From IMG/VR virus record IMGVR_UViG_3300003323_001383: DNA of 64,000 nucleotides; one strand, 5' to 3'. The position numbers were made by a program, and so were the translations under genes. This stretch comes from a virus. Of the stretch, positions 43,655 through 43,717 are shown piece after piece (positions within the stretch are counted from its first letter, which is position 1; every line of letters starts with the position of its first letter). Below the pieces are notes generated by a model that worked only from the letters and a program-made list of their open reading frames with translations, was not told where the DNA came from and did not search any database.

Positions 43655-43717
43655 GGGATAAAACTTACCACAGGTCTTTTTTAAAAACAAGTGACCGAAT
43701 AAGGGGTATCGTCGTCC
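43655..43717. promoter_or_regulatory. 63-bp AT-rich divergent intergenic region with palindromic TTTTTTAAAAA
   Basis: Only strongly AT-rich stretch in the window; separates the sigma-factor gene from a divergent gene. Confidence 0.4.

Follow-up and report, generated by a model that had tools for sequence, protein, structure and literature searches.

The DNA analyzed here, hereafter the window, is a stretch of 64 kb in which positions 43655 to 43717 form a 63-bp intergenic island with a GC content of 41%, against 67.5% for the window as a whole. The island is flanked by a sigma-70-family gene on the minus strand and by a divergent gene, here called the partner gene, on the plus strand (Table 1). 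The original prediction had placed it between two such genes, an arrangement that is borne out, and had quoted its 63-bp sequence exactly. The window also encodes PolA, a DnaB-like helicase, a SNF2 helicase, DnaJ, a dCTP deaminase and an AAA ATPase, together with a protein containing major-vault-protein domains, a tmRNA and 11 tRNAs. Searching the window against Rfam returned only the tRNAs and the tmRNA, and nothing inside the island. IMG/VR contigs of 63-427 kb and public contigs of up to 436 kb carry relatives of the sigma gene, and a root metagenome contains a piece that is 99.9% identical to the window, with the entry ERZ941004 / SRR1924237 in ENA. A DNA similarity search of GenBank phages with the window gave no match, and a protein-level search gave one distant match only, to an uncultured 485-kb phage. 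From the phage-like gene content and the presence of sigma relatives on large contigs, we conclude that the window belongs to an uncultivated huge phage. Huge phages with sigma factors of their own are already known (PMC7162821, PMC7824862).

Several features of the window lie apart from the island. The tmRNA (28971-29318, minus strand) scores 85 bits in Rfam and has the predicted tag peptide ANDNSIAAAA. An 877-aa protein encoded at 31343-33976 (minus strand) matches the shoulder domain of the eukaryotic major vault protein (E = 2e-19) and the vault repeat domain (E = 1e-8), which is unusual for a phage. Three consecutive giant ORFs on the plus strand (333-3287, 4076-8743 and 9611-14137; 984, 1555 and 1508 aa) have a strong coding signal, with GC3 values of 0.95-0.98, and yielded zero Pfam matches. 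Two tandem tRNAs on the minus strand (34225-34299 and 34303-34376; Rfam tRNA scores of 62 and 59 bits) carry the anticodon TTA and would read the UAA stop codon. TAA terminates only 3 of the 64 roughly called genes of the window, and a check for stop-codon recoding, prompted by these two tRNAs, revealed no in-frame TAA read-through candidates, so that recoding is not evident. The AAA ATPase near the sigma gene has ~1160 aa in the relatives L033 (3797-4636) and L034 (3799-4636), where it contains an intein with a LAGLIDADG endonuclease domain; the AAA ATPase of the window (39640-41898, 752 aa) is without this intein.

The sigma protein was originally labeled an ECF sigma factor, a term that applies loosely. 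It just passes the Pfam model Sigma70_r2 (PF04542; 26.1 bits, cut-off 24) but fails the curated ECF model (NCBIfam TIGR02937 sigma70-ECF; 25.7 bits, cut-off 42.9), and Pfam finds no match to sigma region 4. An AlphaFold (AF2) model built from 51 homologues has a pLDDT of 84 and contains a C-terminal helical domain at residues 144-210. The top Foldseek matches of this model are sigma factors (SigH, sigma-E and sigma-2 domains), none of them at E<=0.001: sigma-2 domains are superposed at ~3 A rmsd with non-significant E-values, and the full-length alignment with Mycobacterium tuberculosis SigH has E = 0.057. When the sigma alignment was used as a sequence profile against the PDB, no sigma factor was found. 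The protein has at least 287 homologues, across which region 2 is very strongly conserved. An upstream ATG at 43723 had been named as a possible true start that would remove the intergenic space. This start is ruled out: homologues all align with the N-terminus that begins at ATG 43654, and the protein is likewise 211 aa long in the public gene call, so the intergenic space is real.

The partner protein consists of an N-terminal domain of ~80 aa with four conserved cysteines (C11, C28, C31 and C36) and a Pro-rich tail, probably disordered, with three short conserved motifs (PRPAAFV, PGNTxFxQG and, at the C-terminus, GKTFILDDD; alignment A2) that resemble sites for docking to other proteins. 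Nothing in Pfam, NCBIfam or the PDB matched it; profile searches of the PDB and Pfam gave only zinc-finger-like matches at noise level, and a homologue search with the N-terminal domain alone gave no matches. Its AF2 model is poor (pLDDT 54), not good enough for a fold search. The gene is the divergent neighbor of the sigma gene in 21/21 loci by tblastn, and at nine further loci the gene calls place a divergent gene of similar size beside sigma; the pair is thus conserved at every related locus examined. The distant 485-kb uncultured phage (L044, LR745208.1) carries a partner homologue ~210 kb from its sigma homologue, not adjacent to it.

Table 1. Positions of the genes, the predicted promoter elements and the related sites in the window.
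Feature	Position	Strand	Remarks
Phage sigma-70-family factor, 211 aa, ECF-like, probably two-domain	43019..43654	-	Start ATG 43654
AT-rich island, two predicted back-to-back promoters	43655..43717		Lowest GC at all scales, below 200 shuffles
-10 element TAAGTT	43662..43667	-	7 nt (TTATCCC, 43661..43655) before ATG 43654
17-nt spacer TTAAAAAAGACCTGTGG	43668..43684	-	A6 tract at ~-27 to -22; TGG at 43670..43668
T6A5 run	43677..43687		Last three -35 bases and first eight spacer bases
-35 element TTGTTT	43685..43690	-	ACTTGT invariant in 11 subclade sequences; TTGNNN in 30/32 loci
Partner -10-only element G-TATCGT	43706..43712	+	5 nt (CGTCC) before ATG 43718
Conserved divergent partner gene, 205 aa	43718..44335	+	Alignment A2, neighbor synteny
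Minimal divergent pair, predicted leaderless	38840..38867		22 nt between starts; -10 hexamers overlap by 2 nt
Minimal divergent pair, predicted leaderless, dCTP deaminase (-) / 142-codon ORF (+)	46398..46430		27 nt between starts
Other full match, TTGCGC-17 nt-TGcTAGAGT	60300..60328	+	Heads tRNA array; related, outside the island

Composition of the island and the probable promoter of the sigma gene

The claim that the island is richer in AT than the rest of the window is upheld at every scale tested. The GC minimum of the window falls in the island at 30, 40, 63 and 100 bp; at 30 bp it reaches 23% GC, with 37% for the runner-up, and 0/200 dinucleotide-preserving shuffles matched the minimum of the island at 30 or 63 bp. 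The sequence TTTTTTAAAAA (T6A5) is the longest A/T run of the window and occurs in a single copy; a run of at least 11 A/T bases arose in 3/200 shuffles.

Read on the minus strand, the island has the arrangement cacTTGTTT-ttaaaaaagacctgTGg-TAAGTT-ttatccc-ATG. The comparison set consists of 32 distinct related loci with GC contents of 33-69%, and in 30 of them the sigma gene is preceded by a TTGNNN hexamer, a spacer of either 17 or 18 nt and the sequence TGnTAnnnT. The TG of the extended -10 is present in the same fraction of loci (30/32) and is invariant in alignment A4. The columns without any variation in a subclade of 11 members (GC 39-69%) are ACTTGT, three spacer As, the TG, the two terminal Ts of the -10 and the start ATG. 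Between the window and its relative L042, which has 39% GC and the spacer TCAAAAAAGCTTTATGG, 23/29 promoter bases are common, whereas the sigma proteins are only 62% identical. In the distant 485-kb phage, a sigma homologue of 34% identity (~74.7-74.9 kb, minus strand) is preceded by the near-consensus promoter TTGACA-16-TGcTATATT and a 39-nt leader.

The full pattern (TTGNNN, 17-18 nt, TGnTAnnnT) occurs twice in the window, against 0.2 expected occurrences. The second match stands at the head of a non-coding region of ~1.3 kb (60300-61604, plus strand) that holds an array of Tyr, Lys, Lys, Gln, Asp, Asn and Met tRNAs, with Trp and second Met tRNAs further on (62197-62267 and 63318-63391). The ~350 nt between this promoter and the first tRNA have no Rfam match.

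Judged by its hexamers alone, the sigma promoter of the window is weak: each hexamer matches the consensus at only 3/6 positions, the consensus of the -35 being TTGACA. In 4/11 subclade members the -10 is TTTATT, with a T replacing the critical A at -11. In Escherichia coli, T at -11 would be a strong down-mutation. A simple sigma-70 promoter scan of 42300-45300 called no promoter, and a terminator scan of the same region found no terminator. The thresholds of the promoter scan (at least 4/6 per hexamer) exclude the island promoter, and comparative evidence is therefore needed. This evidence separates the two -10-like hexamers of the original prediction: TAAGTT aligns with the conserved extended -10, whereas TTTTAT is without comparative support.

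As far as sequence comparison can tell, the minus strand of the island is a classical promoter of the primary-sigma type with an extended -10, serving the phage sigma gene. The TG of extended -10 elements is contacted by region 3.0 of group 1-3 sigma factors, and two-domain ECF-like sigma factors are without region 3.0. The most likely reader of this promoter is therefore the housekeeping holoenzyme of the host with its primary sigma, which would make it an early promoter in infection.

Predicted leaderless geometry and the G-TAnnnT class

Every one of the 11 subclade members has the -10 of its sigma gene 6-9 nt upstream of the ATG, and none has a Shine-Dalgarno sequence there. Relatives outside the subclade have leaders of 25-150 nt, several of which end in a GGAGG-type Shine-Dalgarno. 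In the window, neither TTATCCC before the sigma ATG nor CGTCC before the partner ATG is a Shine-Dalgarno. Given the 7-nt gap from -10 to ATG and the lack of a Shine-Dalgarno, the sigma mRNA is predicted to start at or beside the A of ATG 43654 and thus to be leaderless. The partner mRNA is likewise predicted to be leaderless. Its -10-like hexamer (TATCGT, 43707-43712) sits at the GC-richer edge of the island, has no -35, and is separated from the ATG by a 5-nt gap that lies at the short end of known discriminator lengths. G-TAnnGT-like elements are found 5-8 nt before the partner start codon in most loci.

The same geometry recurs throughout the window. With both strands counted, GTANNNT is followed by ATG after 5-7 nt at no fewer than 21 sites, whereas other spacings give 1-6. 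Each of the 21 opens an ORF that is 60 codons or longer with GC3 >=0.79, against a baseline of 43% for all ATGs (P ~2e-8). The ATGs concerned are at 8788, 16685, 22260, 25844, 28617, 30730, 34212, 35123, 35470, 38842, 38865, 43654, 43718, 46400, 46428, 51331, 58799, 59667, 61896, 63295 and 63446, and nine more G-TAnnnT sites use a GTG start. The peak in spacing is specific to ATG and GTG, with none at the non-start codons CTG, ACG and AGG. It also requires the G at -13: A, C or T at this position gives no peak. No conserved -35 was found in the class. Relatives of every GC content (33-69%) show the signal again; the 50-kb stretch examined from a distant huge phage does not show it. From these patterns, leaderless messages starting at G-TAnnnT elements are predicted to be pervasive in the phage clade. 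At several sites (for example 35123, 38842 and 16685), the element suggests a true start downstream of the start of the longest ORF.

At 38840-38867 and 46398-46430, the space between two divergent starts comprises two -10 hexamers with their discriminators of 5-7 nt and nothing else. The spacer between the sigma and partner genes is longer and AT-rich because only the sigma promoter also needs a -35 and a 17-nt spacer. The AT-richness of the island is, on this reading, simply promoter sequence retained against the GC pressure of the genome.

Readings of the island

The island is probably a compact, conserved pair of back-to-back promoters in an uncultivated huge phage, judging from its sequence and that of its relatives; the bidirectional promoter region originally proposed between the sigma and divergent genes is supported by conserved elements and spacing. 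Observed directly are the sequence elements, their conservation and spacing, and their association with ORFs. For the start sites, the holoenzyme at each promoter, the timing and the competition, we infer the following scheme. The host holoenzyme would fire the promoter with the -35 and TGn, giving a leaderless sigma mRNA that would be translated, and the phage sigma would then redirect the polymerase. The partner promoter, a member of the G-TAnnnT class, would be fired by the host sigma; its firing by the phage sigma is a more speculative alternative. A polymerase bound at one promoter would keep a second one off the other, so that the promoters would compete. The footprint of RNA polymerase extends roughly from -55 to +20, the predicted start sites of the two promoters are 64 bp apart, and their -35 regions coincide; simultaneous occupancy is therefore probably impossible.

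It is possible, though less probable than not, that the phage sigma itself reads the two promoters or, failing that, the G-TAnnnT class to which the partner promoter belongs. The sigma promoter of the window, which has G at -13 and also fits G-TAnnnT-N7-ATG, would then be positively autoregulated after a host-driven burst. Conservation of the class at all GC contents, and presumably in different hosts, argues for this, as does the very strong conservation of sigma region 2. The absence of the class from 50 kb of a distant huge phage fits a specificity factor encoded by the clade, but this negative control is a single 50-kb stretch. Against the idea, TAnnnT is the universal -10 of primary sigma factors, and the known ECF-type sigma factors normally need a -35. 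Autoregulation is weakly opposed by the C found at -13 in 8/11 sigma promoters of the subclade, which are therefore outside the G-TAnnnT class. The link between the phage sigma and this class is only a hypothesis.

Rather doubtful is a two-state switch, in which the host primary sigma would make the phage sigma, the phage sigma together with the Cys-rich partner would read G-TAnnnT, and the partner promoter would occlude the sigma promoter. If true, an uncultivated clade of huge phages would have a way of transcribing and translating its genes that has not been described before, and the -35-independent class, specific to this clade, would yield leaderless mRNAs by the dozen (at least 21-30 in 64 kb).

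The perfect palindrome noted in the original prediction, in which the segment was a candidate operator that possibly autoregulates the sigma factor, exists only as the 10-mer TTTTTAAAAA, since T6A5 itself is asymmetric. A search of the 64-kb window found no further copy of it. The T-run/A-run is retained in the subclade (TTGTTTTCAAAAAAG, TTGTTTTGTAAAAAAG and TTGTCTTTCAAATAAAC), but the dyad is not conserved there and is already broken in a relative of 89% identity (TTGTCCTTGAAATAGAC). The conserved feature is a -35 of the form TTGTyy followed by an A-rich spacer. By this comparison the palindrome is incidental, the junction of a T-rich -35 with an A-tract spacer, and an operator is unsupported because dyad symmetry is not conserved. 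The A-tract may have a functional role, structural or protein-binding. It is unlikely, on present sequences, that the T-run/A-run binds a regulator (the partner, the phage sigma holoenzyme or a host nucleoid protein) in addition to its promoter function, and that this regulator would shut off or autoregulate the sigma promoter. The A-tract with its flanking Ts stays at a fixed position from the -35 throughout the subclade, even at 39% against 69% GC, and this conservation exceeds the needs of a neutral spacer; the site overlaps the -35 regions of both promoters, and the partner gene is always adjacent. However, A-rich spacers can shape promoter geometry without a bound protein, and no DNA-binding fold was detected in the partner. 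The site is, moreover, missing from relatives outside the subclade and from the promoter of the same type at 60300.

That the island serves as a replication origin, or as a transcription-primed element for DNA unwinding, is very improbable, and the idea was rejected: no other stretch of the 64 kb melts as easily, the neighboring genes include replication genes (PolA, helicase and dCTP deaminase) and some phage origins combine a promoter with an AT-rich element (T4 oriF/oriG, T7), but no iterons, repeats or DnaA-box-like arrays surround it (only chance-level GC-rich matches), the minimum of the cumulative GC skew is broad (~36-42 kb) and not at the island, the relatives conserve promoter positions at canonical spacing rather than AT content, and 63 bp leaves very little room for both an unwinding element and initiator sites. 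Equally far-fetched is that the AT stretch is not a promoter but an unstructured A/U-rich 5' UTR allowing Shine-Dalgarno-independent translation of sigma from an upstream transcript: A/U-rich leaders can enhance initiation and ATG 43654 is without a Shine-Dalgarno, but the invariant positions match the -35, TG and -10 at exactly canonical spacing, relatives with long leaders carry the same promoter further upstream together with a normal Shine-Dalgarno, and the upstream DNA is partner coding sequence on the opposite strand in which the promoter scan found no promoter-like site.

Known systems and place in the phage clade

As a back-to-back promoter pair, the island resembles several known phage and bacterial systems. 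In Bacillus phage SPO1, the phage-encoded sigma factor gp28 is driven by extended -10 promoters of the primary sigma in a temporal cascade. A TTGnnn -35, a spacer of 17-18 nt and TGnTAnnnT directly before a phage sigma gene are shared with this arrangement, and so would be the initial production of the phage sigma by the host holoenzyme. In contrast to SPO1, the promoter abuts the start codon in one subclade, giving the predicted leaderless message, and it has a conserved A-tract spacer and a second promoter back to back. The PRM/PR pair of phage lambda is also divergent, and the cI mRNA made from PRM is leaderless. In both loci, a phage regulatory module has back-to-back promoters within a short intergenic region, and the regulator mRNA is leaderless (predicted here). 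In lambda, 82 bp separate the start sites and three operators are bound by CI and Cro, whereas the island has ~64 bp between the predicted starts, no repeated operator sites, and two genes that are both apparently leaderless.

Promoters consisting of a -10 only, with leaderless mRNAs, are described in Mycobacterium tuberculosis (Cortes et al., 2013, as cited in PMC7403470). They are alike in having TAnnnT a few nt before the start, no conserved -35, no Shine-Dalgarno and many genes served. The phage class differs in the G immediately 5' of the hexamer and in being the property of a phage clade spanning 33-69% GC rather than of one host lineage. The middle/late promoters of Thermus phage P23-45 are of the extended -10 class and -35-independent (PMC7403470). 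In both cases recognition is carried by the -10 region and the -35 is dispensable, but P23-45 remodels the host sigma-A with gp39 and gp76, whereas the clade of the island encodes its own sigma and a partner protein. The late promoters of T4 are read by gp55 together with gp33 and the sliding clamp (PMC7824862). Here the likeness extends to a minimal, highly diverged phage sigma, an accessory protein of small size and a promoter class based on the -10 only. T4 late promoters have the motif TATAAATA and give mRNAs with leaders, whereas those of the phage class are predicted to be leaderless; by sequence, no homology to gp55 or gp33 is detectable.

The island thus belongs to a kind of element that is already known, of which it is a well-conserved and tidy example, and the most interesting by-product of its analysis is the clade-wide class of putative leaderless G-TAnnnT starts. 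With this signal, gene starts can be corrected and related genomes annotated. The island and the class sites can serve directly as templates in tests of which promoter class is read by which holoenzyme. As the predicted promoter that launches the phage's own sigma factor, the island offers an entry point into the transcription program of an uncultivated huge-phage clade.
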